Positions 30,823-64,000 of a stretch of DNA of 64,000 nucleotides are shown piece after piece. Every line of letters begins with the position of its first letter. The first letter of the stretch is position 1. The translations under genes were made by a program, and so were the position numbers. The stretch comes from an uncultured bacterium. Lineage in GTDB: Bacteria; Patescibacteriota; Minisyncoccia; Phycocordibacterales; GCA-2401445. The DNA lies in contig CALFYW010000016.1 of NCBI GenBank assembly GCA_937952265.1, positions 398,661 through 462,660 of the forward strand, written 5' to 3'. The notes beneath the pieces were generated by a model that worked only from the letters and a program-made list of their open reading frames with translations, was not told the origin of the DNA and did no database searches.

Positions 30823-31128
30823 GTGATGAGGCATACTATGATCTATAGACCATAGGGAGCGCAATTGCTACTCTCACTATGTATGGTTTCTTAACGTTCA
30901 TGCGAAAGGGCGAAAGGAATGCAATGAAGAGGAGAAACACCAAAAAGAAGAAGGTGTCGCGCGGGGATGATAGCAGTGATGCAGGCGGTGACGAAATACA
31001 CCAGAAAGGTTGTGTCATTGTCTGCAAGTCTCCTCTGTCTGCTGGGGAAGTATTTTCCCCGGGAAGTAGCTCGCGTCATCGTGAAAGGTTTTATCTCCAC
31101 GAATGATTGATGGGCACACTCAGTAAAA

Positions 31129-31173
31129 GCCCTAACCGTGTTTCGATTTTGTATACACGGTTAGGGCTTTTTT
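31129..31173 (+). terminator. Strong hairpin plus T-run (12-bp stem gccctaaccgtg / cacggttagggc, 15-nt loop, TTTTTT), ending 3 nt before the ATG of the VirD4-like gene.
   Basis: Read directly from the sequence. It overlaps the 5' part of the track ORF 31107..32948, so the real start of that gene must lie downstream at 31176. Confidence 0.6.
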
Positions 31174-31175
31174 GC

Positions 31176-32948: not shown

Positions 32949-34447
32949 AAAGTTTTTGTTTCTACCTCGGTATCATAGTAGGGTGTTCTATTTTCCCGTT
33001 TTCCGCGGAGGCGCTCGTGGTTACTGAAATCATGTATGATCTGCCAGCAGGAGATGCCGGGCATGAATGGATTGAAGTATACAACGATAGTGATACTGAG
33101 ATTGACCTTACCCTCTGGAGGTTTTTCGAAGGAGAGCAAGGTCACTTAATAAAAAATGCTTCTGGGAATCCACCACTTCCCCCTCAAGGGATTGCCATCA
33201 TTGCGGATAATGAAGCGCAATTCAGAGCAGATTGGCCGTCATTTTCTGGAAGTCTCTTTGATAGTAGTTTTTCTTTGCACAATACTGGTGAAGAGCTTTC
33301 ATTTAAAGATGAAAATGGATTAGTGCATGGAAAAATCACCTATGCTTCAGAGTGGGGCGGGTCTGGCGATGGGAACTCCCTCTCTCTTTTTCAGGGGGCG
33401 TGGCATGGCAGGAGTCCTTCGCCAGGCACTTTTGATAAAACATCCGATGATACGAGCGGGACTTCCCAAGATCAAGATGGGTCACATGAATCTAGTTCTT
33501 CAGAAACTATTGATCCAGTAGCGAAGCCAAAGAAAGAATCACAAGCATCATTTGTGGTGCCCAATATTTATGCTGAAGCACACATGAATCAACGAGCAGT
33601 TGTGGGTGCGCAGAGTGAGTTTACTGCGGATGTGTTTGGGCTTCAAGGAGAACCAATTGACAATGCTCGATTTTTATGGAATTTTGGAGATGGTTCAGTT
33701 CAGGAAGGGAAGCGTGTTTACCACGCCTATGAGTATCCCGGTTCTTATGTGGTGGTGCTTTCCGTGAGCGCGGGGAAATACCATGTTACTGATCGTGGAG
33801 AGATAGTAGCAGTGTCTTCTCCAATCAATGTAAGTAATGCGGTAAGTATGGGGAATGAAGGGTTTATTGAGGTTTCTAATACAGGGGATTTTGAGATTGA
33901 TATATCTCGTTGGATCCTATCTCACGAAGATCGACATTATGTGTTTCCCAAATATAGCATCATTCGGGCTCGTGCCGAGACGCGTTTTCCCTTAAAGACA
34001 ACCCTTATTGCCTTAAATCAGGCATCTCCTATTGTACTCTCGTATCCAAATGGCATTACTGCATCGACATATCATTTTCCTATCTTACGCACCGCAGATC
34101 ATGAAGGTACGGTGGTTCCGGATGTGGTACGAAGAGAAGTGGTATCAATAGAATCATCGAATATCCAAAGTGGGGCGAATATCGCACCTGCTTCCTTAAG
34201 CCAGAGCGCATCCGTAGCGTTTACAATTCCTGGTGAGAGCGAGTTATCAGAATTGAGCACCTCATCAGACGATGGCTCTCGTGCTGAAGCTTTGATTCAG
34301 ACTGAAATTGAAACCAATGAGACGTCAGGGAATTCTCTCGCGTGGATTCTCGCATTTACCTTTATCGTGGTGATTTCGGTACTCGGCATTATTTTTATTC
34401 GACGAGAAAAACAAGATGAAGATAATGACATTACCTTATTAGATTGA
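32945..34447 (+). CDS. Lamin-tail-domain (LTD) surface protein with a signal peptide and a C-terminal TM anchor.
   Basis: VVTEIMYDLPAGDAGHEWIEVYN...DLTLW is the LTD signature. A second beta-rich region and a C-terminal hydrophobic anchor (LAWILAFTFIVVISVLGIIFI) follow. The ATGA junction with the upstream ATPase gene indicates translational coupling. Confidence 0.6.
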   Translation: MKSFCFYLGIIVGCSIFPFSAEALVVTEIMYDLPAGDAGHEWIEVYNDSDTEIDLTLWRFFEGEQGHLIKNASGNPPLPPQGIAIIADNEAQFRADWPSFSGSLFDSSFSLHNTGEELSFKDENGLVHGKITYASEWGGSGDGNSLSLFQGAWHGRSPSPGTFDKTSDDTSGTSQDQDGSHESSSSETIDPVAKPKKESQASFVVPNIYAEAHMNQRAVVGAQSEFTADVFGLQGEPIDNARFLWNFGDGSVQEGKRVYHAYEYPGSYVVVLSVSAGKYHVTDRGEIVAVSSPINVSNAVSMGNEGFIEVSNTGDFEIDISRWILSHEDRHYVFPKYSIIRARAETRFPLKTTLIALNQASPIVLSYPNGITASTYHFPILRTADHEGTVVPDVVRREVVSIESSNIQSGANIAPASLSQSASVAFTIPGESELSELSTSSDDGSRAEALIQTEIETNETSGNSLAWILAFTFIVVISVLGIIFIRREKQDEDNDITLLD

Positions 34448-44119: not shown

Positions 44120-45466
44120 ATGAAGACCGTTGTAATTACCAGTTTTCACCCCCATATTTCAAGGAATATTTTAAGCACGGAAGCATTTCGTATTTTAGTC
44201 CAAAATCCAAAGCTTCGAATTGTGCTCGCGGTTCCTGATTATAAGGTGGATTTTTTTACTAAAGAATACGCTACCAACGAGCGCATTTCAGTATTTGGTA
44301 TTGAACCCTATCAGGCTTCTCGAACGCTACGCGGGCGATTTTTTAAGCGCCTAGGGGTATTTCTTTTTGATACCCAAACCGCTCGAAACAGAAAAAAATA
44401 TGAATACTATTTTCATGGTAAATATATTATTTATTATTTTTCTCGACTACTTGGTATAATTGGCCACTCTTTTATTTTTCGTCGATTGGTACGTTTTCTT
44501 GATCTGTGGTGCGCTCCAAAAACAAGTGCTTCACGCATGCTTTCTGAAATTAAACCGGACATGCTCTTTTCAACTGATCTTCAAAATGAAAATGATGTGA
44601 GCATCATGCACGCGGCACGCAAGGGAAAAATTCCTATTTTAGGAATGTTACGTTCATGGGATAATCCAACTCAGCGTATTCTACGAGTTTTACCAGAAAA
44701 AATGATTGTAGGGTCAAACGTGCTTGAAGAAGAAGTTCGCTTGCTGTATCGATACCCACCAGCACAAATCGTTATTACGGGAAATCCGCATTATGACCGA
44801 TATCTTAAGGGTCCCACGATGAGTAAGGATAAATTTCTAAAGTCTCTCAATCTTCCCCTCGATAAAAAACTTATTTTATATGCGCCAGTTAGTGATGCGC
44901 TCATCTACCATAATGATATTGATGAATATGTGCTCTCCCTACTTGGAGATGTTGACGCATCAGTATTAGTTCGTTTTCCTCCAGAAAAGCCGGTTCGTCT
45001 CTCGGGTGATTTTAAACAACCTCAGAACATGGTCTATGATCGTCCGGGCGTATCTTTTAATGCTCGTCGGGTTGGTGATCGTGAGATTCGTCGCGAGGAT
45101 GATAGTCGCCTTATTGATTCTTTGTATCATGCGGATGTGGTGGTAACTGGCCCGACGAGCATTACCATTGATGCTGCATTAATTGATCGTCCGGTAATCG
45201 CGGTTCATTTTTATCCTACGCCACGTGAGTTTTTCCGTTCTGTATACCGTTACGAGGATAATCAGATCGTTAAAGTTCGAGAAACGGGAGGTATTCATGT
45301 GAGCGTTACAAAAGAAGATTTTTTAAAAACTCTTGCTTCTTATTTAGAAAATCCAAGACGTGATGCAAAAGGAAGAGAGAAAATACGATCAATGTGGTTT
45401 TCGCATGCAGATGGAAGTGCTGGCAGGCGTGTGGCGGACGCGGTACTTGATTTTCTAACGGTATGA
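44120..45466 (+). CDS. TagB/TagF-family CDP-alditol/glycerol phosphotransferase-like protein (Glyphos_transf), paralog 1.
   Basis: SWDN motif, LILYAP, and ADVVVTGPTSITIDAALIDRPVIAV (cf. TagF LITDYSS...DKPIIFY). Confidence 0.45.
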   Translation: MKTVVITSFHPHISRNILSTEAFRILVQNPKLRIVLAVPDYKVDFFTKEYATNERISVFGIEPYQASRTLRGRFFKRLGVFLFDTQTARNRKKYEYYFHGKYIIYYFSRLLGIIGHSFIFRRLVRFLDLWCAPKTSASRMLSEIKPDMLFSTDLQNENDVSIMHAARKGKIPILGMLRSWDNPTQRILRVLPEKMIVGSNVLEEEVRLLYRYPPAQIVITGNPHYDRYLKGPTMSKDKFLKSLNLPLDKKLILYAPVSDALIYHNDIDEYVLSLLGDVDASVLVRFPPEKPVRLSGDFKQPQNMVYDRPGVSFNARRVGDREIRREDDSRLIDSLYHADVVVTGPTSITIDAALIDRPVIAVHFYPTPREFFRSVYRYEDNQIVKVRETGGIHVSVTKEDFLKTLASYLENPRRDAKGREKIRSMWFSHADGSAGRRVADAVLDFLTV

Positions 45467-46842
45467 AAACAATTCTAATTCCAATCACAACAAATTTCTT
45501 TTCTCGAACGTTTCTTCAAACTGACGCTCTATCCGAATTATTGAAAGATCCAGAAATTCGTATTGTCTGCTTATCCCCGAAGAATAGGAGATATTATTAC
45601 GAAAAAACATTCGGGCATGACCGATTACTTTTTGATGAACTTCCAGACACCAGTGCAAAGACCATTGAGTCAGTATTTAGATTTTTGGAAGTGTGGAGTA
45701 TTAAAAGTAAAACACAGAAACTGATTATCGATGCGGAATTTCACCGCAAGGGAAGTAAAGCCTCTTTCTTCTTACGCCTCATTACTTTTATGTTAAAAAA
45801 ATCCTTATGGTTTTTGGGAGCTTTCCGTTGGTGGCGACAGGGGATCCGTTTTTGCTACAGCGTATTTTCGAGCACTGATTACCATGCTTTGTTTGGAGTC
45901 TATCATCCGGAATTAGTATTTGCTCCTACGATGCTTCCTGCTGATGCGCACATACTTCGAGAGGCAAAAAAATTCGGTATTAAGACTGCTGGGGTAGTAC
46001 TAAGCTGGGATAATCTTTATAGTAAAACATTTTTTCGTGTACATCCTGATCGAGTCATGGTTGCGTCAAAGACATTGGAAGATCTTGCGGTAGAGAAAGC
46101 TGATTATCCGCGGAATAAGCTAGAGGTGATCGGTATTCCCCAGTACGATCGTTACGCGAATAAAAAACCCTCACTTTCTCGTGATGAGTTTATTCGCAAA
46201 CTCGGCGGCGATCCTTCAAAAAAATTAATACTTTACGCGCTGTCAGGAAAAAAAGGCATATCTATCGAACATGGTATTATTGAATTGCTGTATCGCATAG
46301 TAAAGGAGAACATGCTTAAAGAGCCTGTTGAGGTGCTCATACGCCCTTATCCTCGCTATGATTTTTCTGAAGAAAAATTATCGAAGTGGCGACATGAATA
46401 TGGGTTTCGAGCCGAATCATCACTCGCACATATTGACGGTAAAGCAGATGAATGGGAATTTGATGATGTATCACTTGATTTTTTGCAGAATAGTCTTGCT
46501 CATGCGGATGTGATTATTACCATGTATTCTACTTTTTTTATTGAGGGAGCGATTCACGATAAGCCGTTAGTCGCGATAGGGTTTGATGGTTTAGAAGATG
46601 AAAATTATTGGAATTCAAGTCGGCGTTTTTTTGAGTGGGATCATTTGAAGTCATTATTGCCGTGTGATGGGATTACCTTCGCCCGTAGCTTCCAAGGTTT
46701 AGCCGAATCAATTAATAGCTCGCTCATGGATCCGAAATTAAAACGGGAAGGAAGAAAATGTATCGTAAATCAGCAGGCAACGTTTAACGATGGAAAATCA
46801 GGCATTCGTCTGGGAAAGTCACTTTATACCTTGATGAAATAA
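45463..46842 (+). CDS. TagB/TagF-family phosphotransferase-like protein, paralog 2.
   Basis: VLSWDNLYS and ADVIITMYSTFFIEGAIHDKPLVAIGFDG. ATGA overlap with paralog 1. Confidence 0.45.
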   Translation: MKTILIPITTNFFSRTFLQTDALSELLKDPEIRIVCLSPKNRRYYYEKTFGHDRLLFDELPDTSAKTIESVFRFLEVWSIKSKTQKLIIDAEFHRKGSKASFFLRLITFMLKKSLWFLGAFRWWRQGIRFCYSVFSSTDYHALFGVYHPELVFAPTMLPADAHILREAKKFGIKTAGVVLSWDNLYSKTFFRVHPDRVMVASKTLEDLAVEKADYPRNKLEVIGIPQYDRYANKKPSLSRDEFIRKLGGDPSKKLILYALSGKKGISIEHGIIELLYRIVKENMLKEPVEVLIRPYPRYDFSEEKLSKWRHEYGFRAESSLAHIDGKADEWEFDDVSLDFLQNSLAHADVIITMYSTFFIEGAIHDKPLVAIGFDGLEDENYWNSSRRFFEWDHLKSLLPCDGITFARSFQGLAESINSSLMDPKLKREGRKCIVNQQATFNDGKSGIRLGKSLYTLMK

Positions 46843-46854
46843 TATTGTTTCGTT

Positions 46855-48252
46855 ATGCATAAAAAAACAATCGCCATTACGTTAGGATCTGCGGCCGCGT
46901 TTCGGAACCTCTTTTTCTTCCCAGGGAGCGTGTTCGAACAGCTTCGAGTATATGCGAAAAAAAATAATATTCGAATTCTTGTCTGCATTACGCCAAAAGA
47001 CTATGAAAAGTATCAGCCAATTATTAACCCTGATGGGGAATATGTGTGCTATGAGAAAATTTCAGTCGCTCCTGCGCGCAGATCTCTTGAGCGCGTATTC
47101 TACTTTTTCTATTCCTACTTAGTGTATACCGGAACGACGAAAGTGTTAGCTACCATGGCGATTCGTCCTGATGAGCCCCCAGCCGGAGGAAAGTCGTATT
47201 TAGTATTCTTGAAGTGGACAATTTCTCGTTTTTTTGGATGGAGTCGTTTTTTGAAACGAAATGTTATCCCTTTTTTATTTCACAAAATTTTTATTGAGAG
47301 ACCCTTCAGAGATACAATCGAATCATACCAACCTGATCTTATGGTGAGTACCCATATCTATGGATGGTTTGATACTCAGTTTCTTCGAGAAGCAAAAGCG
47401 CAAGGCATTAAGACCATCGGCATGCCTGCTGGGTGGGATCATCTCGATAAGTATTTTCTACCATTTCACCCTGATACCCTTTTAGTTCCAAGTAAAGAAC
47501 TCTCAAATGCCGCAGTAAAATACCAAGCATACGCGAAATTTGAAATACAAATTGTAGGGTACGCGCATTTTGATTTTATTCTAAACCCAGAAATTCAAAA
47601 AACACGAGACGAGGTGTTGCGTTTCTTGAATTTTCCACCCCATGCCAAGTATCTTCTCTATGTGTCTGGAAGCGCGTATTGCCCGGATGAACCCGATATT
47701 ATAGAGACATTGCTTCAATGGTTTGAGGAGAAGCAGGTTGGTGATGAGGACGTTTACCTGGTTATCCGCCCTTACTTAGGAGGGAGAGGGAAAGACCGTG
47801 AATTTGATGAGAAAAAGTTTAATCGTTTTAAGACGCACCCAAGAGTTTATTTTTTTGATAAACCACTTTGGAATGATGTTGAAAATAGTGCCTCATTTAT
47901 TAATATTATGCGATACGCGGATGTGGTGCTTGGTATGTATACCACAATTGTGCTTGAGGCAAGCGTATTTGATCGACCGCTTATTGCCGCCGGATTTGAC
48001 GGTTATACTACACGCCCCATGAAGCGCTCAATTCGTCGGTTTGAGTATCTTGAGCATTTTAAGGATGTTCTGAAGACAGGAGCACTTCCAACCGCTTATA
48101 ATTTTTCGGAGTTACAAGAGTTGCTCAAACTCACGTTAGCTGATCCTCATAGTCGGTCACATGAACGCGAGAAATTGCGACATTCACTCGCAGGGGTCCT
48201 TGACGGGGCATCTTCTCGTCGTATAGTAGATGCATTAATTAACGCGCTCTGA
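46855..48252 (+). CDS. TagB/TagF-family phosphotransferase-like protein, paralog 3.
   Basis: PAGWDHLDKYF and ADVVLGMYTTIVLEASVFDRPLIAAGFDG. Confidence 0.45.
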   Translation: MHKKTIAITLGSAAAFRNLFFFPGSVFEQLRVYAKKNNIRILVCITPKDYEKYQPIINPDGEYVCYEKISVAPARRSLERVFYFFYSYLVYTGTTKVLATMAIRPDEPPAGGKSYLVFLKWTISRFFGWSRFLKRNVIPFLFHKIFIERPFRDTIESYQPDLMVSTHIYGWFDTQFLREAKAQGIKTIGMPAGWDHLDKYFLPFHPDTLLVPSKELSNAAVKYQAYAKFEIQIVGYAHFDFILNPEIQKTRDEVLRFLNFPPHAKYLLYVSGSAYCPDEPDIIETLLQWFEEKQVGDEDVYLVIRPYLGGRGKDREFDEKKFNRFKTHPRVYFFDKPLWNDVENSASFINIMRYADVVLGMYTTIVLEASVFDRPLIAAGFDGYTTRPMKRSIRRFEYLEHFKDVLKTGALPTAYNFSELQELLKLTLADPHSRSHEREKLRHSLAGVLDGASSRRIVDALINAL

Positions 48253-49218: not shown

Positions 49219-51105
49219 ATGTGTGGCATTGCAGGATTTGTTGGAAGTGGAAATCAAGCTGATCTTAACTTGATGCTAAAGCGTATTGCGCATCGGGGTC
49301 CTGATAGTGAGGGAAAATTCACCCGGGGGAATGTGTTCTTTGGCCACCGGCGTTTATCGATCATTGATTTGAGTAGCGCGGGAAACCAACCTATGTGGAA
49401 TGAGGAGGGAAATATCGCGCTTATTTTTAATGGTGAGATCTATAATTTTCAGGAATTACGGAAAGAGCTTCTTGCTACTCGGCGGCATACGTTTCAGAGT
49501 AATACTGACACCGAGGTGATCATCCATCTTTATGAAGATCTTGGAGTTCAGTGTTTTAAGAAGCTCTCAGGGATGTTTGCATTAGCGATTTATGATTTTC
49601 GATCTAATCGTTTAATATTGGCTCGAGATCGAATTGGCAAGAAACCTCTTTATTGGTCGCGACAAGGAGATACGATCATTTTTGCGTCAGAACTTAAATC
49701 AATACTTGCGCACCAGTTAATCCCTAAAGCGATTGATCCAATGATGCTCAATCAGTATCTTCAATATGACTATGTGCCGACCCCATATACGATGGTTCAA
49801 GGAGTGAGGAAGCTTTTAGCCGGAAACTACCTTCTCTGGGATGGGAAGAAACACAGCCTCCATTCATTTTGGGAGCAATCATTTCTACCTAAGCACTCTG
49901 AAGAGTCAATCGAGGCAACACTTTCTCAGCTTAACAAGCACCTCACCAAGAGTGTTTCAGAGAGGCTGGTTGCTGATGTACCGGTGGGAGTCTTTCTAAG
50001 TGGTGGGTTGGATAGCGCGGTTATGGCATACTATGCGTCTATCTTACAACCTTCTTCAGTACGGACATTTTCTGTTGGATTTCGAGAGAAGACTTTTGAT
50101 GAATCAAGTTATGCACGCATGGTAGCAGAATATTTAAATACCGATCATACCGAGCGTTATGTGACTGTTCAGGATATGCTCGATGCAACACTTAGTATTA
50201 CCGATTTTCTCGATGACCCTATTGCTGATACCTCAATTATTCCAACGTATTTATTATCTAAGTTTGCCCGTGAGTCAGTCACGGTTGTACAGAGTGGTGA
50301 TGGCGGAGATGAGCTCTTCGCGGGGTACCCTACTTTTTTTGCGGAGTTTTTTGCACGTTTCTATGAGAAGGTCCCCCGCGCAATCCATCATCATGTAGTT
50401 CGTCGAATAACTCAGTTATTCCTCTCTCCGCACGATAAGTACTTTAGTCTCGAATTCAAAGTTAAAAAGTTCTTAGAAGGATTTGAAGATATGAGACATC
50501 GTCGACATGCTATCTGGCTCGGTAGCCACTCAAGGGATAGTAGATCAAACCTATTATCTGAATCGTTATGGAGTGAGGTTGGAGGAGAAAATGAATTTGC
50601 GTTAGTTGATGCTTTTTTTGAACGTTTTAGGAATGAGGATTCGCTCAGTCAACTTCTTGCTTTCTATCAGCGATTTTATTTGATGGATCAGGTTTTGGTA
50701 AAGGTGGATCGCGCAAGTATGGCGCACGGATTAGAAGTTCGATCTCCTTTTCTTTCCTATGAACTCGTTGATTATGTCAACCGCATGCCTTCAGATCTAA
50801 AGTATCGGATGTTTACCTCAAAGTGGATTTTGAAGAGGTTGATGCATGGGAAGCTTCCACCTCAAATTATCAATCGAAAGAAACAAGGGTTTGCAACACC
50901 GCTTTCTCTATGGTTTAAAAATGAACTCAAGGGATTTATCTCAGAGGTTCTACTTTCCTCAGGGGTGAAGCAGGACGGTTTCTTTAACACGGTATACATT
51001 GAACGCTTAATTCATGAGCATGTCTCCGGGAAAGAAAACCATACCAAAAGGATCTGGTCTTTATTGGTATTCGAACTTTGGAAGAACCGGTGGCTTAAGC
51101 GTTAA
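49219..51105 (+). CDS. asnB: Asparagine synthetase (glutamine-hydrolysing) AsnB-family amidotransferase.
   Basis: N-terminal MCGIAG nucleophile. PP-loop SGGLDS. Confidence 0.85.
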   Translation: MCGIAGFVGSGNQADLNLMLKRIAHRGPDSEGKFTRGNVFFGHRRLSIIDLSSAGNQPMWNEEGNIALIFNGEIYNFQELRKELLATRRHTFQSNTDTEVIIHLYEDLGVQCFKKLSGMFALAIYDFRSNRLILARDRIGKKPLYWSRQGDTIIFASELKSILAHQLIPKAIDPMMLNQYLQYDYVPTPYTMVQGVRKLLAGNYLLWDGKKHSLHSFWEQSFLPKHSEESIEATLSQLNKHLTKSVSERLVADVPVGVFLSGGLDSAVMAYYASILQPSSVRTFSVGFREKTFDESSYARMVAEYLNTDHTERYVTVQDMLDATLSITDFLDDPIADTSIIPTYLLSKFARESVTVVQSGDGGDELFAGYPTFFAEFFARFYEKVPRAIHHHVVRRITQLFLSPHDKYFSLEFKVKKFLEGFEDMRHRRHAIWLGSHSRDSRSNLLSESLWSEVGGENEFALVDAFFERFRNEDSLSQLLAFYQRFYLMDQVLVKVDRASMAHGLEVRSPFLSYELVDYVNRMPSDLKYRMFTSKWILKRLMHGKLPPQIINRKKQGFATPLSLWFKNELKGFISEVLLSSGVKQDGFFNTVYIERLIHEHVSGKENHTKRIWSLLVFELWKNRWLKR

Positions 51106-56425: not shown

Positions 56426-58417
56426 TTATTTTCTCTTGGTGTGAGAAAATATCTGGACCATTTCATTTTCATAAATTAGTTTTATTGAATCTGTTTCTTT
56501 AATATTTCCTCCAAGGAGTCGCTCTCGTGGGCCGAGATAGAGGTAGTCAAGATGGAAAGAATTTTCAATTGGTAGAGCAGTTTCAGTGTATTCCTGATAT
56601 TGCTCAAGAAGCTTCGTGTGGTCTTCGTCTGAAATATACGGGGGAAGGAATCCTTTATTTGTAAAAATACTTCCTGGTTGCTTTGCACGAAGCATGTCCC
56701 CATATAGGTAACTCAATCCTTCAAATTCATAGCTTGCTGGAGGATAAGTTTCTTCTGTGGCAAAGAAATGAGCAAAGACATCCGAGGTAATCATAAATAG
56801 GTGCGAGATCTCCATAAATCGTTTTGTAATTTCTTCATTTGGAGCGATAGAGGTAAGCCCGTTTGGCGCATAGAGATTGTTGAAAGTGAGGTTAGCAAGA
56901 TAGGTATTTGAAAGAAATGATGGTGTACCAACGACACTTCCTGGCTGGGTGTTTTCATTAAGCCACTTAAAACTCTCAGATTCATATTGTGGAATCATGG
57001 CACGGGCCTTGCTCTCCTCGATAAAATTTTCTTGCGCCATCATTCCTTTGATAAAAAGCAAACCAATAGCGATCCAAAGAAGGAAGATGAGGTATTCGCG
57101 GTGTGATATGTTAAACAGGTATCGAAACCCCCAGAGTATGTAAAGGAGGGTGATAAATCCTGCAATACCAAAAACTCCAAACATGACCACCGTGCTTTCG
57201 GTGGTAATCCCAATAATCGAAAGTGGAATAACCAGGGTGAGAGTGATCAAGGCGCTTTTTTTCTCCGATGGTACTTTACATTTGTGCTGGAGGAAGTAGT
57301 ACGCAAGTACGAAGAATGAAAGTGTTAATACTACTTGTTGTGGTTTTATCCAGTGATCTGGCTGAGGATTAAATCCAGTAATAATTTGGAAATTATAAAT
57401 AACAAATACTGGAAGGAGTAAGCTGGCAAACCACACACCATTATTGCTTTTTGTATTTCGATAAAGGAACAAAAAGAGAATTGCAAGTACCGCATGTTGA
57501 ACATAAAAGAATAAAACTCGAGGGTACCACAATGGTTTATGAGTATGCTCTGGTCCAAGCCTTAGTGCGAGATCTGAATATGAGGGAAGTGCTTGAACCG
57601 CAAAAAAAGAAATCCAGTATGGAATAGAAATCAAAAGTCCCAGCCCGATGATAATCGCGGTGTTTTTTACAACGCTCCATTTTTTTGAAAACGCGGCAAT
57701 CCCGAGCAAAAATACGAGTGCGATTCCAAGGTACGCCACATAATAAAAATAGGTATAAAAAAGAATCCCAAAGGAAATCCCCGCAAGGTAACAAGTGATT
57801 CTTTCATTGCGTTGTATAGTTCGATAGATGAGGTAGAGCGCAAGAATGAAAAAGGGGAGGGTCAGGAGCGGGTCCTCGAATCGATCAAGTGGAAGGTGTT
57901 TTGGTGCAAGGATTAGCTTTGTTAAGAACCATGATTGGTAGTATTCTGAAAAGAGTGGAAAAAAAGCGAGATAGCGGGGTAAGATAATAGAGAACATTGC
58001 AAAAAAAATCGCACCTGTCTTCTGTCTCGTAATTTCAAAAAAGAGCAGATAAAGAAAAAAGAAGGTTGCTATTGGAAAGAGGGCGTCACCTAGCATATTT
58101 GCGATCTGTATGTCCCCAACGAATCGAGCAAAATAACCCGCAATCAGATGGGGTATTGGTGGAAGAAAGTTTGGAGAATCTTGGTATTCCCAAACATTGA
58201 CATCACCCGCAGGCTCTCCATTAATAAATACTTCATTGACCCGTGCGGTGGTAAAGTGTCGTTCATCAAGGTTAACAAGCGTAGGATAGTATTCGATCCC
58301 TCTTTTCGAGAAGCTCTCAAAAAGGATGAAATGGGCAGTTCCATGGAGCAAGAAAATGGCAATGAGTAGGAGAAGCGCAATATGATGCCGGAATATAAAT
58401 GAAGCTAATCTTGACAT
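56426..58417 (-). CDS. Large polytopic membrane protein, GT-C-like (candidate oligosaccharyl/glycosyl transferase). The only minus-strand gene inside the glycan locus.
   Basis: 663 aa. The N-terminal ~450 aa have ~13 TM segments and are followed by a soluble C-terminal domain. Confidence 0.4.
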   Translation of the reverse strand: MSRLASFIFRHHIALLLLIAIFLLHGTAHFILFESFSKRGIEYYPTLVNLDERHFTTARVNEVFINGEPAGDVNVWEYQDSPNFLPPIPHLIAGYFARFVGDIQIANMLGDALFPIATFFFLYLLFFEITRQKTGAIFFAMFSIILPRYLAFFPLFSEYYQSWFLTKLILAPKHLPLDRFEDPLLTLPFFILALYLIYRTIQRNERITCYLAGISFGILFYTYFYYVAYLGIALVFLLGIAAFSKKWSVVKNTAIIIGLGLLISIPYWISFFAVQALPSYSDLALRLGPEHTHKPLWYPRVLFFYVQHAVLAILFLFLYRNTKSNNGVWFASLLLPVFVIYNFQIITGFNPQPDHWIKPQQVVLTLSFFVLAYYFLQHKCKVPSEKKSALITLTLVIPLSIIGITTESTVVMFGVFGIAGFITLLYILWGFRYLFNISHREYLIFLLWIAIGLLFIKGMMAQENFIEESKARAMIPQYESESFKWLNENTQPGSVVGTPSFLSNTYLANLTFNNLYAPNGLTSIAPNEEITKRFMEISHLFMITSDVFAHFFATEETYPPASYEFEGLSYLYGDMLRAKQPGSIFTNKGFLPPYISDEDHTKLLEQYQEYTETALPIENSFHLDYLYLGPRERLLGGNIKETDSIKLIYENEMVQIFSHTKRK

Positions 58418-58475: not shown

Positions 58476-59855
58476 ATGAATTTCTCCAAACGGCAAGAGC
58501 CGTTCTCTTTTTCGCGTGCGTTTGTGCAAGGGGAACTCCACCTCGGTATTTGGAGTTTCTTTAAAAAATTTGTCGGTGTTGGAAATTCTTTCTTCGTCTT
58601 AAGCTCCCTTACTCTATATCAATACGGAGTCTATCAGCTCCTACTCTCTTTTTATGCAATTGTGTCTGATTTCTTCCACGATTTGTTTGCGAGCGTAACT
58701 TCAAATGATATTGCTCGTTTTATTGGAGAGAGAAAAGAAGCACATGCAAAACGACTCTTTCTTGAATATGCCCGATTTCGTCTTTTTATGGCTGCAATTC
58801 CTTTGGTAGGGACTTTTTTTATTGCATCTTCCGTTTCGCACCTTTATGGACCTGAAGCTATTCTTTGGGTTCAAATACTCGGTATTTTATTTATGGTAGA
58901 TGCCATACTCGCGCTTGCAATGATTCTTTTAAAACTCCGACTTGAATTTCGCATTGTCGCAACACGTCCAGCTTTTCAGAAATTTATCCAACTCGCTGTC
59001 TTAGCGTATTTCTTTTTCTTTTCTTCTATTGGGATCAAAGAGGTCTTGCTGGCACAGCTTCTTGCGCCGCTCATCACCTTGGTTTTTCTTATCCCCGCCA
59101 TTATTCGCGTTTATCACCCATGGAGAAGTTTGCGTGGATTATCAGAAGGTATTTTTGTTTCGGTGGTGCGATCTTACGGAAAGTGGGAGATCCCGCAATC
59201 ACTACTTCGCGACCTGGTAGCCAAAGTCCGACCTTGGATTATTAAGTTTTTTCTCACTACGGAAGCAGTCGGAATTTTTGGCGTTGCGAATACCGCAGTT
59301 TCTTTATTGAAGGATTTAATACCGATGCGTACCCTCTCTACTCTTGTGCCACGGAAAGTTTCTGATCGGGGGTACCTCAATTTTCTTTTTGCGTATGGAA
59401 CAAAATATTATCTTCTTCTCGGAGCAGGTCTGGTCGTGATTGGGGGGGTTGGTTTTCCTATCGCTATTAAATTCCTTTTCCCGCATTTTTCATCCGCAAT
59501 TCCGCTCTTCTATATACTGCTTCCAACGGTACTCTTCTTCGCGTTTATAAAAATCATCAGTATCTTTTTGGTTGTTGAAAGACGCCAACGGTTTATCTTC
59601 TACTTCTCTCTTTTTCAAAGTGTCATCACGCTCGCATTTCTCGTAGGTGCAGTAAGTAAATTTGGGCTCATGGGTATTGCGCTAGCTGAAGTCTTCGCGC
59701 TTGGTATTGCAATTTTGGTTAAATACCGTTATCTCTTGCGGCAGAAATTTATTAAGCCCTTTTCTTTTGGCACGCTGTTTACTTTCACCCAAGAGGATCG
59801 ACGTATTTTATCAATACTGCATTTGAATATTTTTGCCTTTTTAAAGAAAAAATAA
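58476..59855 (+). CDS. Polysaccharide/oligosaccharide flippase-like membrane protein (MOP/Wzx-like).
   Basis: 459 aa with ~12 TM segments, located within the glycan cluster. Confidence 0.45.
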   Translation: MNFSKRQEPFSFSRAFVQGELHLGIWSFFKKFVGVGNSFFVLSSLTLYQYGVYQLLLSFYAIVSDFFHDLFASVTSNDIARFIGERKEAHAKRLFLEYARFRLFMAAIPLVGTFFIASSVSHLYGPEAILWVQILGILFMVDAILALAMILLKLRLEFRIVATRPAFQKFIQLAVLAYFFFFSSIGIKEVLLAQLLAPLITLVFLIPAIIRVYHPWRSLRGLSEGIFVSVVRSYGKWEIPQSLLRDLVAKVRPWIIKFFLTTEAVGIFGVANTAVSLLKDLIPMRTLSTLVPRKVSDRGYLNFLFAYGTKYYLLLGAGLVVIGGVGFPIAIKFLFPHFSSAIPLFYILLPTVLFFAFIKIISIFLVVERRQRFIFYFSLFQSVITLAFLVGAVSKFGLMGIALAEVFALGIAILVKYRYLLRQKFIKPFSFGTLFTFTQEDRRILSILHLNIFAFLKKK

Positions 59856-59860
59856 TACTA

Positions 59861-60646
59861 TTGGAGCTTATGAATAATCGCGAACTTCAGGAATTCTATA
59901 ATCGTGTCTATAAGAAAGGAGAGCGCAAACATTACAGTAAATTCTTGCTGACAAAAGAAGGCCTTACCCAAGAGAAGAGAGCTATTTTAAATACAACGTC
60001 ATGGAATAGGAAACGAGTACTTGATATTGGATGTGGTACCGGTGAACTTGCTTACCATATTGCTCAAAAAGCAAAATATGTGTGCGGAATTGACTACGCG
60101 CCAAGTGCGATAAAAATTGCTCAGAAACATTACCAGAGAGATAATTTAACCTACTTGCAAAGTGATGTTGAATCTCTCGATGAGGCTTTTGATGTTATCG
60201 TGATGGCTGGAGTGCTAGAGCATATTGACGAACCTTTTCTATTGCTCAAGAAATTGTCACATTTACTTGCTCCCAAGGGTTCCATAATCGTGACTTGTCC
60301 AAACTGGTCGAATATGAGGGGGTATATTTTGCTCGCCCTCGCAATGCTTTTTGACGCTCGTATTACACTAGCAGATATTCATTATTTTACACCGGTTGAG
60401 TTTGAAGCTTGGGCAAGGAAGCTTCGAATGAAGCTCTCATGGAATAGTATTGAACAGGAGTGGGGCCACGGAGAGAAAATGATTGCTGATTTTAAGAAAC
60501 GTCTTCCTAAGGTGCTTCAAGATACGCAGGTAAAGATTTCTCCTCAGAAGATTTCTCGATTTATCGCGTGGCTTTCAAAACATTACGCGTTAGAAACCAA
60601 TCAAAAAGCTTCAGGCGCAGTTGGTATTTATCATCTTAAAAGGTAA
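59861..60646 (+). CDS. Class I SAM-dependent methyltransferase.
   Basis: VLDIGCGTGELAYHIA...VIVMAGVLEHI. Confidence 0.7.
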   Translation: MELMNNRELQEFYNRVYKKGERKHYSKFLLTKEGLTQEKRAILNTTSWNRKRVLDIGCGTGELAYHIAQKAKYVCGIDYAPSAIKIAQKHYQRDNLTYLQSDVESLDEAFDVIVMAGVLEHIDEPFLLLKKLSHLLAPKGSIIVTCPNWSNMRGYILLALAMLFDARITLADIHYFTPVEFEAWARKLRMKLSWNSIEQEWGHGEKMIADFKKRLPKVLQDTQVKISPQKISRFIAWLSKHYALETNQKASGAVGIYHLKR

Positions 60647-60656
60647 TAGGGAGCAC

Positions 60657-62252
60657 ATGCGAAACTTGACAGATAAAACTATTTACGATATTTTGACTCC
60701 ATTGCAGAGATCTATGGAAAGAGGAGAAACAAGCGTTTTTGATTTTAGAGATTTATTCGTCTTTGAAATGGCCAATAACCATCAAGGGAGTCTTGAGCAT
60801 GGAAAAAAGATTATTCGTGAAATGGGGGTTATTGCGAAGAAAAAAAATATACGCGGAGCTATTAAATTTCAATTTCGAGATCTAGACACATTCATCCATC
60901 CTGAATTTCGTCGAGATAAAGAAGCTAAACATATTTCCCGTTTTCTCTCCACCCGTTTGACTGAAAGTGACTTTGAGACCTTAGTGAAATATGCCCGACG
61001 ACAAGGACTTATGACGATGGCGACCCCTTTTGATGAAGTCTCAGTCGATATGATTGATCGTTTAGGAATCCAGATTATTAAAGTCGCAAGTTGCTCAGCT
61101 CATGATTGGCCACTACTCGAGAGGATCGCTCAAACAGATCGTCCGATTATTGTCTCCGTGGGTGGACTTACGCTCAAGGAAGTCGATCGTGTGGTCAGCT
61201 TCTTCGAACATCGAGGCGCACACTTCGCCCTCATGCACTGCGTGGCGGTGTATCCAACTCCTGATAAAGATTTAAATCTCAATCAAATTACGCTTATGCT
61301 AGAGCGATACCCGCATATTACTATTGGATTTTCAACGCATGAATCCCCTGATAACACGACAGCTATCGCTCTTGCGTATGCGCGCGGAGCGCGTATCTTT
61401 GAAAAACACGTTGGAGTAGCAACTGATACCATTAAACTTAATGCGTACTCTGCAGATCCGACTCAGGTAAGTCATTGGATTGATGCATATCGTAAGGCGA
61501 GGGTGTCATGTGGAGATGATGTAGAAAGGACGATTGGAACACAAGAGAAAAAAGATCTCCAAACGCTTTTACGTGGAGTGTATGTGAAGCGAAAGCTAAA
61601 AGCCGGATCAATTATTTCCAGAAACGATGTATTTTTTGCAATGCCATATCAAAGTGGCCAAATGAAGAGCGGTCGATTTAAAGAAGGTTTTACTGCTGAT
61701 CGGGATTATAAGAAAAATGAACCTCTCAATGCATACATTGAACCTCAGCGTCCTTATAAAAGAGACATTGTCTATGGAGCAATCCGTGAAGCGAAAGCGA
61801 TGCTCGCCAAAGCGCGTATTCCGCTCAATCATGAATTTTCAGTTGAAATCTCGCACCATTTTGGGCTTGATAAATTTCAGGAGACAGGTTGCATGATCAT
61901 CGAATGTATTAATCGGGAATATGCAAAGAAGCTCATTATTCAATTTCCCGGACAGAAGAATCCAGTACATTATCATAAGGAAAAAGATGAGACCTTCCAA
62001 GTTCTCTTTGGTTCACTTGAAGTAGTGGTGGAAGGGAAAAAGCGTACGCTCTTTCCTGGAGACACGCTATGGGTTCCACGTGGAGTGTGGCACGGCTTCC
62101 ATACTAATACCGGCGTCGTGTTCGAGGAGATCTCTACGGTCGCAAAGGGTAATGATTCTTATTATGTAGACAAGCAAATTGCAAGTATTCCACGAGAAAC
62201 ACGAAAAACCTACCTTCAAAACTGGGGAAGACATCAGTTTGATGAAGAGTGA
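60657..62252 (+). CDS. NeuB-family nonulosonic-acid synthase (NeuB plus SAF domains) fused to a C-terminal cupin domain.
   Basis: NeuB TIM-barrel motifs (MANNHQGSLEHGKK, MATPFDEVSVDMI, IKVASCSAHDWPLL), then a SAF domain. The tail fits both cupin motifs: G-x5-HxH-x3-E (PVHYHKEKDE) and G-x5-PxG-x2-H-x3-N (GDTLWVPRGVWHGFHTN). Start moved to the Met at 60657 to avoid overlap with the upstream gene. Confidence 0.75.
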   Translation: MRNLTDKTIYDILTPLQRSMERGETSVFDFRDLFVFEMANNHQGSLEHGKKIIREMGVIAKKKNIRGAIKFQFRDLDTFIHPEFRRDKEAKHISRFLSTRLTESDFETLVKYARRQGLMTMATPFDEVSVDMIDRLGIQIIKVASCSAHDWPLLERIAQTDRPIIVSVGGLTLKEVDRVVSFFEHRGAHFALMHCVAVYPTPDKDLNLNQITLMLERYPHITIGFSTHESPDNTTAIALAYARGARIFEKHVGVATDTIKLNAYSADPTQVSHWIDAYRKARVSCGDDVERTIGTQEKKDLQTLLRGVYVKRKLKAGSIISRNDVFFAMPYQSGQMKSGRFKEGFTADRDYKKNEPLNAYIEPQRPYKRDIVYGAIREAKAMLAKARIPLNHEFSVEISHHFGLDKFQETGCMIIECINREYAKKLIIQFPGQKNPVHYHKEKDETFQVLFGSLEVVVEGKKRTLFPGDTLWVPRGVWHGFHTNTGVVFEEISTVAKGNDSYYVDKQIASIPRETRKTYLQNWGRHQFDEE

Positions 62253-62271
62253 TTCGGTTTAAAAAGTAGGG

Positions 62272-62934
62272 ATGAAAGATATAAGATCAGAAAATATCAA
62301 GACGTTGGTTTTTGATTTTGATGGAACTCTTACTAAAGGCGGAGAATCTCTAAAGAAAGAATCATGGGTTGAGCTTGGAAAAGATGACCTCTCTTTTCAA
62401 AAAGCCCTACTTCACGCCCATAATTTTTTTGCTGGAAGTAAGAGTCGATTTGAGATTATACGATACGCGTTGGGAGAATCTTCCCATTATTCAAAAAAGA
62501 ATATTGAGGCATTGGTGGAGGGTTATGCATTTCAGTACGATCAGATTGTACAGCGTAGACTTCTAGCGAGTGGACTCATTGAAGGAACGATAAAAGGACT
62601 TGAGGTGCTTAGAAATCGATTTTCACTCTATATTAACACAAGCACCCCCGAAATCGCGGTGAAAGAGAGTTTAAAAAACTTAAATATCAGGCACCATTTT
62701 TCTGGTGTTTTCGGAAAACCTAGCTCGAAGTCTCAAAACTTAAAAAAAATAATAAAGAAAGAGAATGTGTTAGTCGAGAATGTGCTTTTTATTGGTGATA
62801 GCGAACATGATAGAGAAGTGGCGACAGATCTCGGGGTTACTTTTATTGGTGTTGCGAATAAGGAAAACCGGTGGAAGCATACTGATTTTCCCCTTATTCA
62901 TTCAGTCTTTGATTTGATCGTTTTGACCCAGTAG
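62272..62934 (+). CDS. HAD-superfamily phosphatase (candidate nonulosonate-9-phosphate or KDO-8-P-type phosphatase).
   Basis: LVFDFDGTLT motif I and a C-terminal GDSEHD motif. Confidence 0.65.
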   Translation: MKDIRSENIKTLVFDFDGTLTKGGESLKKESWVELGKDDLSFQKALLHAHNFFAGSKSRFEIIRYALGESSHYSKKNIEALVEGYAFQYDQIVQRRLLASGLIEGTIKGLEVLRNRFSLYINTSTPEIAVKESLKNLNIRHHFSGVFGKPSSKSQNLKKIIKKENVLVENVLFIGDSEHDREVATDLGVTFIGVANKENRWKHTDFPLIHSVFDLIVLTQ

Positions 62935-62961
62935 ATTTTTTGTGTAATAAATAGAGACACC

Positions 62962-63684
62962 ATGAAAATATACGCAATCATTCCCGCGCGCGGTGGGTCA
63001 AAAGGGGTCCCAGGAAAGAACACCCGCCTTTTAGCGGGAAAACCACTGATCGCATGGACCATTGAAGCCGCAAAAAAGGTACCCCATATTGATAAAGTAA
63101 TCGTGAATACCGATGACGAGGCTATTGCGCGCGTGTCGCGTGAATATGGTGCTGAAGTGTTTGATCGACCAAAAGAACTAGCAGAAGATCTAACTTTAGA
63201 TCTTCCTGTATTTGAGCATCATCTCAACACACTAAAGGAGCAGAATGATTGTCCTGACGTAATAGTTGATCTCCGCGCTACTGCCCCTTTGCGTAGGAGC
63301 GAACGTATTCGAGAGGGTATTGAGCTCTTACTTAAGCATGGTCCAGAAAAAGCAGATTCAGTACGAGCGGTGTCAAAAGCATCGAAACATCCTTACAAGA
63401 TGTGGAGGTTTCAGGATAGCTATATTGAACCACTACTTTCAGAAGACCATACAGGAATCAAGGAGCCATATAATGTGGCTCGACAAATGCTCCCGTTGGT
63501 ATATCAGAATAACGGATGTATGAATGCGTTTTGGCCACATATTGTACTTGAAAAGAATTCCATGACTGGCGCCTGTATCGCCGGATACCCAATGGAGGAT
63601 TGGGAATCAGTCAATATTGATACTGAATTCGATTTTCTTCTTGCTGAGTATCTGATGAAAAAACATCAGCATTATTTTAATTAA
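62962..63684 (+). CDS. neuA: Acylneuraminate cytidylyltransferase-family enzyme (CMP-nonulosonic acid synthetase).
   Basis: IYAIIPARGGSKGVPGKN N-terminal signature of the CMP-NeuAc/CMP-Kdo synthetase family. Confidence 0.8.
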   Translation: MKIYAIIPARGGSKGVPGKNTRLLAGKPLIAWTIEAAKKVPHIDKVIVNTDDEAIARVSREYGAEVFDRPKELAEDLTLDLPVFEHHLNTLKEQNDCPDVIVDLRATAPLRRSERIREGIELLLKHGPEKADSVRAVSKASKHPYKMWRFQDSYIEPLLSEDHTGIKEPYNVARQMLPLVYQNNGCMNAFWPHIVLEKNSMTGACIAGYPMEDWESVNIDTEFDFLLAEYLMKKHQHYFN

Positions 63685-63692
63685 ACAAATAC

Positions 63693-64000
63693 ATGTCTAT
63701 GAAAGTAAAAATTATCGGAGCGGGATCAATTGGAAATCACTTAGCGCAGGCAGCTCGTCGAATGAACTGGGAAGTCGTGGTGGTTGACCGTGATAAAAAG
63801 GCACTTAATCGAATGAAGGACGAGATCTATCCTTCTCGGTATGGGGCATGGGATCCGGAGATTTCACTTTTTGAAAGTATTAATGAGCCGAAAGGTGATT
63901 TTGATGTCATTATGGTTGGTACTCCTCCTGATGTGAGGATGAGGGTTGCCCTCGAAGCCTTAAAGGAAGAACCGCGAATTCTTCAATTAGAAAAACCTAT
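63693..64000 (+). CDS. NAD(P)-binding Rossmann-fold oxidoreductase (Gfo/Idh/MocA-like). The 5' part only; the gene continues off-window.
   Basis: MSMKVKIIGAGSIGNHLA dinucleotide-binding motif. The frame is open to the window end. Confidence 0.4.
   Translation, partial: MSMKVKIIGAGSIGNHLAQAARRMNWEVVVVDRDKKALNRMKDEIYPSRYGAWDPEISLFESINEPKGDFDVIMVGTPPDVRMRVALEALKEEPRILQLEKP

Follow-up and report, generated by a model that had tools for sequence, protein, structure and literature searches.

The 64,000-nucleotide stretch analysed here (hereafter the window; contig CALFYW010000016.1 of an uncultured bacterium of the Patescibacteriota) ends in a cassette of four genes, which encode a NeuB-like synthase fused to an isomerase-like cupin domain, a HAD hydrolase, a cytidylyltransferase and a Gfo/Idh/MocA-type dehydrogenase. 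On balance, we favour the view that this cassette makes a cytidine monophosphate (CMP)-activated, non-aminated 3-deoxy-2-ulosonic acid, most likely 2-keto-3-deoxynononic acid (KDN) or a close derivative, by a route other than those leading to N-acetylneuraminic (Neu5Ac), legionaminic (Leg) and pseudaminic (Pse) acids. The view starts from direct observations, namely the identities of the domains, the conserved catalytic residues, the separation of the synthase as a clade and the linkage of the genes. A preliminary description of the same DNA had noticed a NeuB-family synthase, a HAD phosphatase, a CMP-sugar synthetase and a Rossmann oxidoreductase in a row at 60657-64000, and domain matches confirmed the four genes on the plus strand.

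Organization of the cassette

Coordinates are those of the whole window; coordinates of the 68-kb ENA contig L001, which runs on beyond window position 64000, equal window coordinates minus 50656. The four plus-strand genes fill 60657-64000 with intergenic gaps of 19, 27 and 8 bp. The first (60657..62252, +) encodes a fusion protein of 531 amino acids, in which a NeuB-type TIM barrel and a SAF-like domain are followed by a D-lyxose/D-mannose-isomerase-like cupin; its ATG at 60657 is preceded by a GGGAG motif, and the product is the same protein as the 531-residue database entry P0001, located on L001. Next come a HAD-superfamily hydrolase of type IA with a C1 cap (62272..62934, +; PF00702 4.4e-14, HAD_2 7.8e-13), a putative CMP-ulosonate synthetase of the CTP_transf_3 family resembling NeuA and PseF (62962..63684, +; PF02348 6e-26), and the first 102 codons of a NAD(P)-dependent sugar dehydrogenase with the Gfo/Idh/MocA fold (63693..64000, +; alternative start 63699), cut by the window end. 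Promoter-like sites in the 58-64 kb region occurred at chance frequency, and a terminator scan of the same region revealed no convincing intergenic terminator between the cassette genes (counts at or near chance), which fits a single operon.

The fused synthase and isomerase-like domain

The synthase portion of the fusion protein (approximately residues 28-345; 60738..61691, +) was delimited by alignment to 3g8r, 1xuu/4ipi, 8h2c and 1vli and by Foldseek. It belongs to Pfam family PF03102 (E=2.6e-45), and Cupin_2 matches the same protein with E=1.1e-12. The best NCBIfam matches for the cassette are NeuB, PseI and PseF, all well under their cut-offs: the synthase scored 151.2 bits against the NeuB equivalog TIGR03569 (cut-off 399.65) and 135.8 bits against the PseI equivalog (cut-off 340.25), and the cytidylyltransferase scored 125.8 bits against the PseF equivalog (cut-off 205.7). 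KDO8PS was a distant fold match only in Foldseek, the family being NeuB and not KdsA.

In Neisseria meningitidis NeuB (NmNeuB), the conserved catalytic residues are E25, E134 and E234 together with R314 of the SAF domain, the latter being the only conserved substrate-contacting SAF-domain residue among known NeuB proteins (PMC8208679). Alignment to solved NeuB-family chains demonstrated that the fusion synthase keeps the metal ligands (H228 and H251, aligned with the metal-binding H215 and H236 of NeuB), the phosphoenolpyruvate (PEP)-site residues K70, K142, S145, S167 and S226, and two of the conserved catalytic glutamates (E37 and E249). The residue corresponding to E134 is S147, a serine invariant across the fusion family; R314 is replaced by M329 (methionine, isoleucine or phenylalanine across the family) and D247 by N262. 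By its sequence, the synthase in the window is not a canonical NeuB, PseI or LegI.

Among solved structures, PDB 3G8R is nearest to the synthase domain (296 bits, Foldseek identity 42%, TM score 0.92 over 332 columns); the N-terminal part of the AlphaFold model of the fusion protein (mean pLDDT 85.8) superposes on it, while NeuB, PseI, SpsE and Leptospira NeuB score 79-94 bits. The preliminary description had proposed to place the synthase among the known clades by phylogeny. In a neighbour-joining tree it did not group with NeuB, PseI or SpsE: all 67 cupin-fused NeuB domains formed one monophyletic clade with 3G8R as its sister. NmNeuB, CjPseI, BsSpsE and Leptospira NeuB lay outside this clade at distances of 0.77-0.84, and the fused clade was as distant from NmNeuB, CjPseI and BsSpsE as those are from one another.

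The C-terminal cupin domain (approximately residues 369-531; 61761..62252, +), absent from the preliminary description, was recognised by profile and Foldseek matches to 2y0o and 7nzo/7nzq. PF07385 matches it with 27.3 bits (cut-off 20.8). A profile of residues 352-531 matched D-lyxose isomerases over nearly their full length (2Y0O of Bacillus subtilis, 1.6e-10; 7NZO of Thermofilum, 3.9e-10), whereas quercetinases matched the same profile over the 48-residue cupin core only. In Foldseek, the C-terminal part of the model superposed on 2Y0O with a TM score of 0.70 (root-mean-square deviation 2.3 Å) and on 7NZQ, the isomerase complex with D-mannose, with a TM score of 0.70. The Thermofilum isomerase TsLI contacts Mn2+ and mannose or fructose through K62, H75, H77, K86, E88, H143, E156 and D163 (PMC8378251). 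These eight residues map to K425, H438, H440, K443, E445, H479, E491 and D500 of the fusion protein, the D163/D500 mapping being approximate, and all eight are invariant among 23 members of the fusion family, with H438/H440/E445/H479 as the metal site (His-His-Glu-His). Given these conserved contacts and the profile and fold matches, the cupin domain is in all likelihood a working aldose-ketose isomerase with lyxo- or manno-configured substrates. Searches with the cupin domain alone retrieved about 320 clusters at 50% identity (E <=1e-10); most of the full-length members carry the cupin at approximately residues 340-510 of a protein of about 510 amino acids.

Presumed phosphatase, cytidylyltransferase and dehydrogenase

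The HAD protein contains all motifs of its superfamily (DxDGT, T/S, K and GDxxxD). It scored 22.4 bits (cut-off 107) and 19.8 bits (cut-off 208) against two KdsC models and is not of the KdsC type; from its family, we presume that it dephosphorylates a sugar phosphate in the pathway.

The cytidylyltransferase has the N-terminal motif PARGGSKG(I/V)PxKN in the form IIPARGGSKGVPGKN. Among PDB chains, it matched the CMP-Neu5Ac synthetase 6IFD with 105 bits, the mouse and meningococcal enzymes with 73-76 bits, the Prymnesium enzyme deposited as PpNeuA with 57 bits, and the best KdsB chain with 37 bits; the best KdsB subfamily model scored 54 bits (cut-off 193).

These scores bear on a C8 product. 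The cupin could turn xylulose or xylulose 5-phosphate into D-lyxose or its 5-phosphate, from which a Kdo-like 3-deoxy-octulosonic acid would be formed, dephosphorylated and CMP-activated. Such a scheme is in agreement with the preference of the nearest characterised cupins for D-lyxose and D-xylulose (PMC8378251), with the weak matches of the cytidylyltransferase to KdsB models, and with the parallel between the order isomerase-synthase-phosphatase-cytidylyltransferase and KdsD/KdsA/KdsC/KdsB. It is nevertheless quite improbable in our estimate: the cytidylyltransferase is much closer to CMP-Neu5Ac synthetase than to KdsB, the synthase is not of the KdsA family, and Kdo needs arabinose 5-phosphate, whose C2/C3 configuration is not lyxo/manno. 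Moreover, a lyxose-derived octulosonic acid is, to our knowledge, not known in nature. Kdo itself was set aside as the product on the similarity of the cytidylyltransferase and the stereochemistry of the isomerase.

The dehydrogenase was recovered whole on L001, with 353-355 amino acids depending on the start, and matches PF01408 with 32.1 bits (cut-off 24). Its AlphaFold2 model (pLDDT 93) has the Gfo/Idh/MocA fold, with a Rossmann N-terminal and an alpha/beta C-terminal domain. Foldseek neighbours with TM scores of 0.7-0.8 include levoglucosan dehydrogenase, scyllo-inositol dehydrogenase, WlbA, NAD-dependent sulfoquinovosidases and the sialic-acid enzyme YjhC of E. coli, all of which, as far as is known, oxidise secondary hydroxyls of sugars. 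A sequence search of PDB gave no match beyond the Rossmann motif. ElaA, a Gfo/Idh/MocA enzyme, is a precedent for action on a CMP-nonulosonate (PMC13656337), and EpaA is one for the fusion of a cytidylyltransferase to a redox enzyme (PMC12053666).

Distribution and gene linkage

A scan of one genome per species yielded at least 546 confirmed pattern matches, and the NeuB-cupin fusion was found in hundreds of species genomes from more than 12 phyla; locus comparisons were made with the best 80 of these matches. All 120 closest homologues have the NeuB-cupin architecture, at 57-68% identity, and every named protein among them comes from Patescibacteria/Parcubacteria or from an unclassified metagenome-assembled genome (MAG). 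Of the 80 loci, 28 are labelled as candidate phyla radiation (CPR), 50 belong to other groups and 2 are unlabelled. The non-CPR groups include Nitrospirota, Gemmatimonadota, Verrucomicrobiota, Planctomycetota, Desulfobacterota, Acidobacteriota, Bacillota, Actinomycetota, Chloroflexota, Elusimicrobia, Bacteroidota and Pseudomonadota. The earlier expectation that such a pathway would be unusual for a CPR lineage is at odds with the 28 CPR loci and with the origin of the named close homologues: CPR genomes rank among the most frequent carriers of the fusion. Cultured Niveispirillum irakense DSM 11586 carries the cassette gene, as does Nitrospira sp. T9, whose record bears no MAG label. A tblastn search of 72,556 plasmids retrieved canonical NeuB and PseI only, at 25-30% identity.

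Fifty of these loci extend at least 4 kb to either side of the fusion gene, and linkage was scored there for partners no more than 3 kb away from it. Counts were taken from tblastn hits instead of open reading frame (ORF) calls, since a longer antisense ORF displaced the anchor gene in L041, L042, L046, L055, L061 and L078. The cytidylyltransferase was present in 45 of the 50 loci, the Gfo-like gene in 43, the HAD gene in 35 (nearly always directly 3' of the fusion gene), a TagB/F-like (Glyphos_transf) gene in 19 and NeuC in 3; cytidylyltransferase, Gfo-like and HAD genes all occurred within 4 kb in 30/50. De novo clustering of neighbouring ORFs revealed no recurrent aminotransferase or acetyltransferase family in the cassette neighbourhoods. 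Some homologues unite the functions in one chain: P0049 and P0116 are CTP_transf_3+NeuB+cupin fusions, and P0214 joins CTP_transf_3 to the Gfo-like domain.

An RfaE-domain-II/TagD-like nucleotidyltransferase gene lies directly 5' of the fusion gene in six CPR loci (L011, L012, L014, L017, L018 and L021) and is fused in P0049 and P0073. It was rejected as a core step, being found in 6 of 80 loci and absent from the window.

Some of these data would suit an ulosonic acid that has not been described before, either a keto or epimeric KDN derivative made by the Gfo-like enzyme or a longer acid built from a heptose (D-glycero-D-manno-heptose from sedoheptulose). The Gfo-like gene is more tightly linked than HAD (43 against 35 of 50 loci) and is fused to the cytidylyltransferase in P0214, some CPR relatives add the nucleotidyltransferase just mentioned, and the substrate pocket of the synthase diverges from known NeuB. 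On the other side, nothing points to a particular structure, fructose and mannose are the simplest pair for a manno-type isomerase, and the extra nucleotidyltransferase is as sparsely distributed as stated. In this form we think the proposal unlikely; more broadly, a chemically undescribed CMP-ulosonic acid, whether an oxidised or epimerised KDN or a C8 or C10 homologue, is a possible, if rather doubtful, product of the cassette.

In the closest species-level relative (66% identity; L004:10001-21341), the TagB/F-like gene comes immediately after the fusion gene, and NeuC, SQD-like and GalE-like genes and one cytidylyltransferase come next. Seven other loci (L059, L066, L067, L068, L072, L074 and L079), from MAGs labelled Nitrospirales/Nitrospira, Desulfuromonadales or Deltaproteobacteria, share a conserved block within about 0-9 kb 5' of the cassette. 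This block encodes a fatty acyl-AMP ligase (FAAL), a short-chain dehydrogenase/reductase (SDR), an acyl carrier protein (ACP) and an alpha-oxoamine synthase-like pyridoxal phosphate enzyme, as well as an Elm1-like glycosyltransferase of 811 aa and an unclassified GT-B-like protein of 467 aa. The block has the look of one for a long-chain amino-alcohol lipid that bears the ulosonic acid.

The fusion protein might also serve something other than surface-glycan biosynthesis, for example a catabolic or natural-product role, given that FAAL, ACP and alpha-oxoamine-synthase genes adjoin the cassette in Nitrospirales-labelled and deltaproteobacterial (Desulfuromonadales-type) loci. We find this hardly credible, because in the window and in CPR relatives the cassette is set among glycosyltransferase, flippase-like and Wzy_C genes, and because a CMP-sugar synthetase as constant partner implies that a glycosyl donor is made.

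A second ulosonic-acid module beyond the window

Past the window end, L001 encodes, in this order, the full Gfo-like protein (355 aa), a fourth TagB/F-like glycosyltransferase, a NeuC equivalog (347 bits, cut-off 236), a CysH-like phosphoadenylyl/adenylyl sulfate (PAPS/APS) reductase, a uridine diphosphate (UDP)-sulfoquinovose-synthase-like protein, a GalE-like SDR, a second CTP_transf_3 protein, a canonical NeuB with a SAF domain (343 aa) and a Wzy_C/TPR protein. The canonical NeuC/NeuB/NeuA set among these genes occupies a stretch 2-8 kb past the window. The second NeuB keeps the equivalents of E134 and R314; in the neighbour-joining tree it is nearest to NmNeuB and outside the fused clade, so the locus encodes two separate ulosonic-acid modules. 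The conventional sialic-acid-type module lies outside the window, and the module within it is distinct.

It was the preliminary description that called the four genes the canonical arrangement for Neu5Ac, Leg or Pse. Membership of the synthase and the cytidylyltransferase in the NeuB and CTP_transf_3 families and the identity of the top NCBIfam matches (NeuB, PseI and PseF) speak for a canonical synthesis and activation module. The suggested look beyond position 64000 did reveal NeuC and SDR epimerase/dehydratase-like genes 2-6 kb downstream on the same contig; however, that NeuC is paired with a canonical NeuB and a cytidylyltransferase of its own. The equivalog scores far under the cut-offs, the loss of the E134 and R314 equivalents, the separate clade, a fused isomerase that has no role in the Neu5Ac, Leg and Pse pathways, the occurrence of NeuC in only 3 of 50 loci and the lack of a recurrent aminotransferase or acetyltransferase family among the neighbours together make a canonical module very improbable. 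What stands of the earlier proposal is the general idea: making and CMP-activating a sialic-acid-like 2-keto-3-deoxy acid within a surface-glycan locus is plausible, while the four genes do not form a Neu5Ac, Leg or Pse module.

The CysH-like gene (184 bits, cut-off 154) adjoins the UDP-sulfoquinovose-synthase-like gene (457 bits, cut-off 575) at L001:16905-18788, about 3.6-5.4 kb past the window; the SQD-like gene is kept in L004 at 59% identity. The glycan locus may also make UDP-sulfoquinovose, a sulfite supplier being paired with an SQD1/Agl3-type enzyme.

Proposed reconstruction of the pathway

For the synthesis of KDN or a close derivative, we infer the following scheme, including the substrates used, the sequence of reactions, the number of carbons and what the Gfo-like enzyme does. 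The HAD phosphatase would remove a phosphate at one of two points, from the ketose ahead of isomerisation or from the ulosonate once condensation has taken place. The cupin domain would isomerise a ketose of central metabolism (fructose or fructose 6-phosphate) to a manno-configured aldose, which the fused NeuB-like domain would then condense irreversibly with PEP. This irreversible condensation would pull the unfavourable isomerisation, which offers a rationale for the fusion, and fructose and mannose as the substrate pair would give KDN as the product. A deaminated acid agrees with the loss of R314 and with the lack of amino-sugar genes. The NeuA-like enzyme would form the CMP sugar, and the Gfo/Idh/MocA enzyme would oxidise or epimerise a secondary hydroxyl, probably on the ulosonate or the CMP-ulosonate. 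Finally, TagB/F-like GT-B enzymes of the locus could put the product on a surface glycan; in CPR loci, glycan assembly would proceed beside a Bac_transf-like initiating transferase, recognised by sequence motifs and not scanned, and a Wzy_C-type ligase.

Several points weigh against this reconstruction. Literature searches on NeuB-cupin fusions, on nonulosonic acids in Patescibacteria/CPR, and on KDN in anammox bacteria or Nitrospira retrieved no publication on the fusion family. The chemistry of the synthase could be altered by the missing E134 equivalent. The likeness of the cassette to the KDN-9-phosphate route of B. thetaiotaomicron and to the NANS route is one of enzyme logic. Known D-lyxose isomerases act on free sugars, whereas a HAD phosphatase points to phosphorylated intermediates, leaving the order of the steps ambiguous. 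The HAD gene is also the weakest of the four, both in linkage (35/50) and in conservation (about 30% identity). With the Gfo-like enzyme taking part, the final sugar may be other than KDN. The sequence is compatible with a carbon number of 8, 9 or 10 and with free as well as phosphorylated substrates. Finally, tblastn detected no HAD or Gfo-like gene anywhere in the L004 locus, whose sole cytidylyltransferase is 9 kb off, so the cassette is not invariant even among near relatives.

The surrounding glycan locus

Three tandem TagB/TagF-like GT-B paralogues are encoded upstream in the window (44120-45466, 45463-46842 and 46855-48252, that is 44120..48252, +; PF04464 and pairwise similarity). They are mutually 25-29% identical, the third (46855-48252) having no Pfam match yet being clearly homologous. 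The fourth TagB/F-like GT-B, which follows the Gfo gene just past the window, weakly matches the BFO_1060 family model; this family comprises the Tannerella forsythia Pse/Leg transferases, which contain a TagB-like domain (PMC5420450). The TagB/F-like paralogues are candidate transferases for CMP-ulosonic acids or for cytidine diphosphate-glycerol.

Directly upstream of the fusion gene, a class I S-adenosylmethionine (SAM)-dependent methyltransferase is encoded at 59861..60646 (+; Methyltransf_23/11, ~1e-19), a gene that the preliminary description had also passed over (59861-60646). It ends 10 bp before the fusion gene, and its ORF cluster is present in 28 related loci, often directly after the cytidylyltransferase. 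It is probably part of the cassette and may O-methylate the cassette sugar. The preceding gene (58476..59855, +) encodes a multi-pass membrane protein of 459 amino acids without a Pfam match; its homologues recur 5' of the cassette in CPR loci (ORF cluster c10, 10 loci), and a role as glycan flippase is possible.

The rest of the window is an ordinary chromosomal context, with genes for GroEL, alanine racemase, class II ribonucleotide reductase, MurJ, LepA and MurC/D followed by the glycan locus of about 30 kb. A TraG/VirD4/HerA-like coupling ATPase (613 aa) and a secreted-looking Lamin-tail/PKD protein (500 aa) are encoded at 31107-34447, directly 5' of a block of seven GT4 glycosyltransferases. 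Inside the glycan locus, at 49219-51105, there is an AsnB-type glutamine amidotransferase with homologues in cassette-bearing CPR loci (cluster c9, 13 loci); its possible role is the amidation of a sugar carboxylate. The sole large opposite-strand gene of the glycan locus (56426-58417, -) encodes a multi-pass membrane protein of 663 amino acids with no Pfam or NCBIfam match.

Implications

The cassette represents a widespread fourth NeuB lineage, while current genome surveys place every NeuB homologue in Neu5Ac, Leg or Pse. Sialic-acid-like sugars shape the encounters of bacteria with hosts, phages and other bacteria. The fused isomerase suggests that the acceptor sugar is obtained straight from a ketose of central metabolism, with no nucleotide-sugar precursor. 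If true, this would be an economical route for organisms of reduced metabolism such as CPR bacteria, and a bacterial route to KDN-type sugars; the widespread annotation of such proteins as "N-acetylneuraminate synthase" would have to be corrected, and the cassette would allow an acidic glycan to be traced in lineages of environmental importance. Should the product instead prove to be an undescribed acid, it would be a new acidic surface sugar of hundreds of species in more than 12 phyla, including many CPR, Nitrospirales/Nitrospira-labelled lineages and a Brocadiia MAG. The cultured carriers make the prediction testable.

Comparison with known systems

The fusion protein shares the TIM-barrel and SAF architecture, the metal histidines and the PEP-binding lysine and serine residues with canonical NeuB, PseI, LegI and SpsE. 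It differs from them in scoring 80-94 bits against these proteins and more than 200 bits under the equivalog thresholds, in the replacement of E134, D247 and R314, in the additional isomerase-type domain, and in its gene neighbourhood. The Chromobacterium violaceum protein 3G8R, deposited by structural genomics as "probable spore coat polysaccharide biosynthesis protein E", likewise has a serine at the position of E134 and a hydrophobic residue at that of R314; unlike the fusion protein, it has no cupin in the deposited 350-residue chain. In the literature, it was found as a modelling template only.

In enzyme logic, the cassette resembles the KDN pathway of B. thetaiotaomicron (KDN-9-phosphate synthase, phosphatase and CMP-KDN synthetase) and vertebrate NANS/NANP/CMAS, which combine a NeuB-family synthase, a HAD phosphatase and a CTP_transf_3 enzyme and involve no amino-sugar tailoring. 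This comparison draws also on published work (PMC10483923, PMC6200933). In contrast to these routes, the cassette synthase is fused to a cupin and lacks E134 and R314, the Gfo-like enzyme is an integral component, and the HAD protein is a capped type IA enzyme, not one of the KdsC type (cap-less C0).

ElaA/ElaB/ElaC of 8-epi-legionaminic acid synthesis and NanOx/YjhC provide a parallel for the proposed Gfo-like step: in these systems, Gfo/Idh/MocA enzymes working alongside a cytidylyltransferase act on a (CMP-)nonulosonic acid and oxidise one of its hydroxyls (PMC13656337, PMC7535918). The cassette differs from them in having no partner SDR reductase and no detectable similarity to the solved chains past the Rossmann motif.

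With the D-lyxose/D-mannose isomerases (B. subtilis YdaE, 2Y0O; TsLI, 7NZO-7NZQ; E. coli Z5688, 3KMH), the fusion cupin shares the His-His-Glu-His Mn site and the conserved equivalents of K62, K86, E156 and D163. It is 22-24% identical to them and is set apart by the NeuB-like domain ahead of it and by an extra conserved C-terminal motif, PRExRKT...NWGRHQFD.

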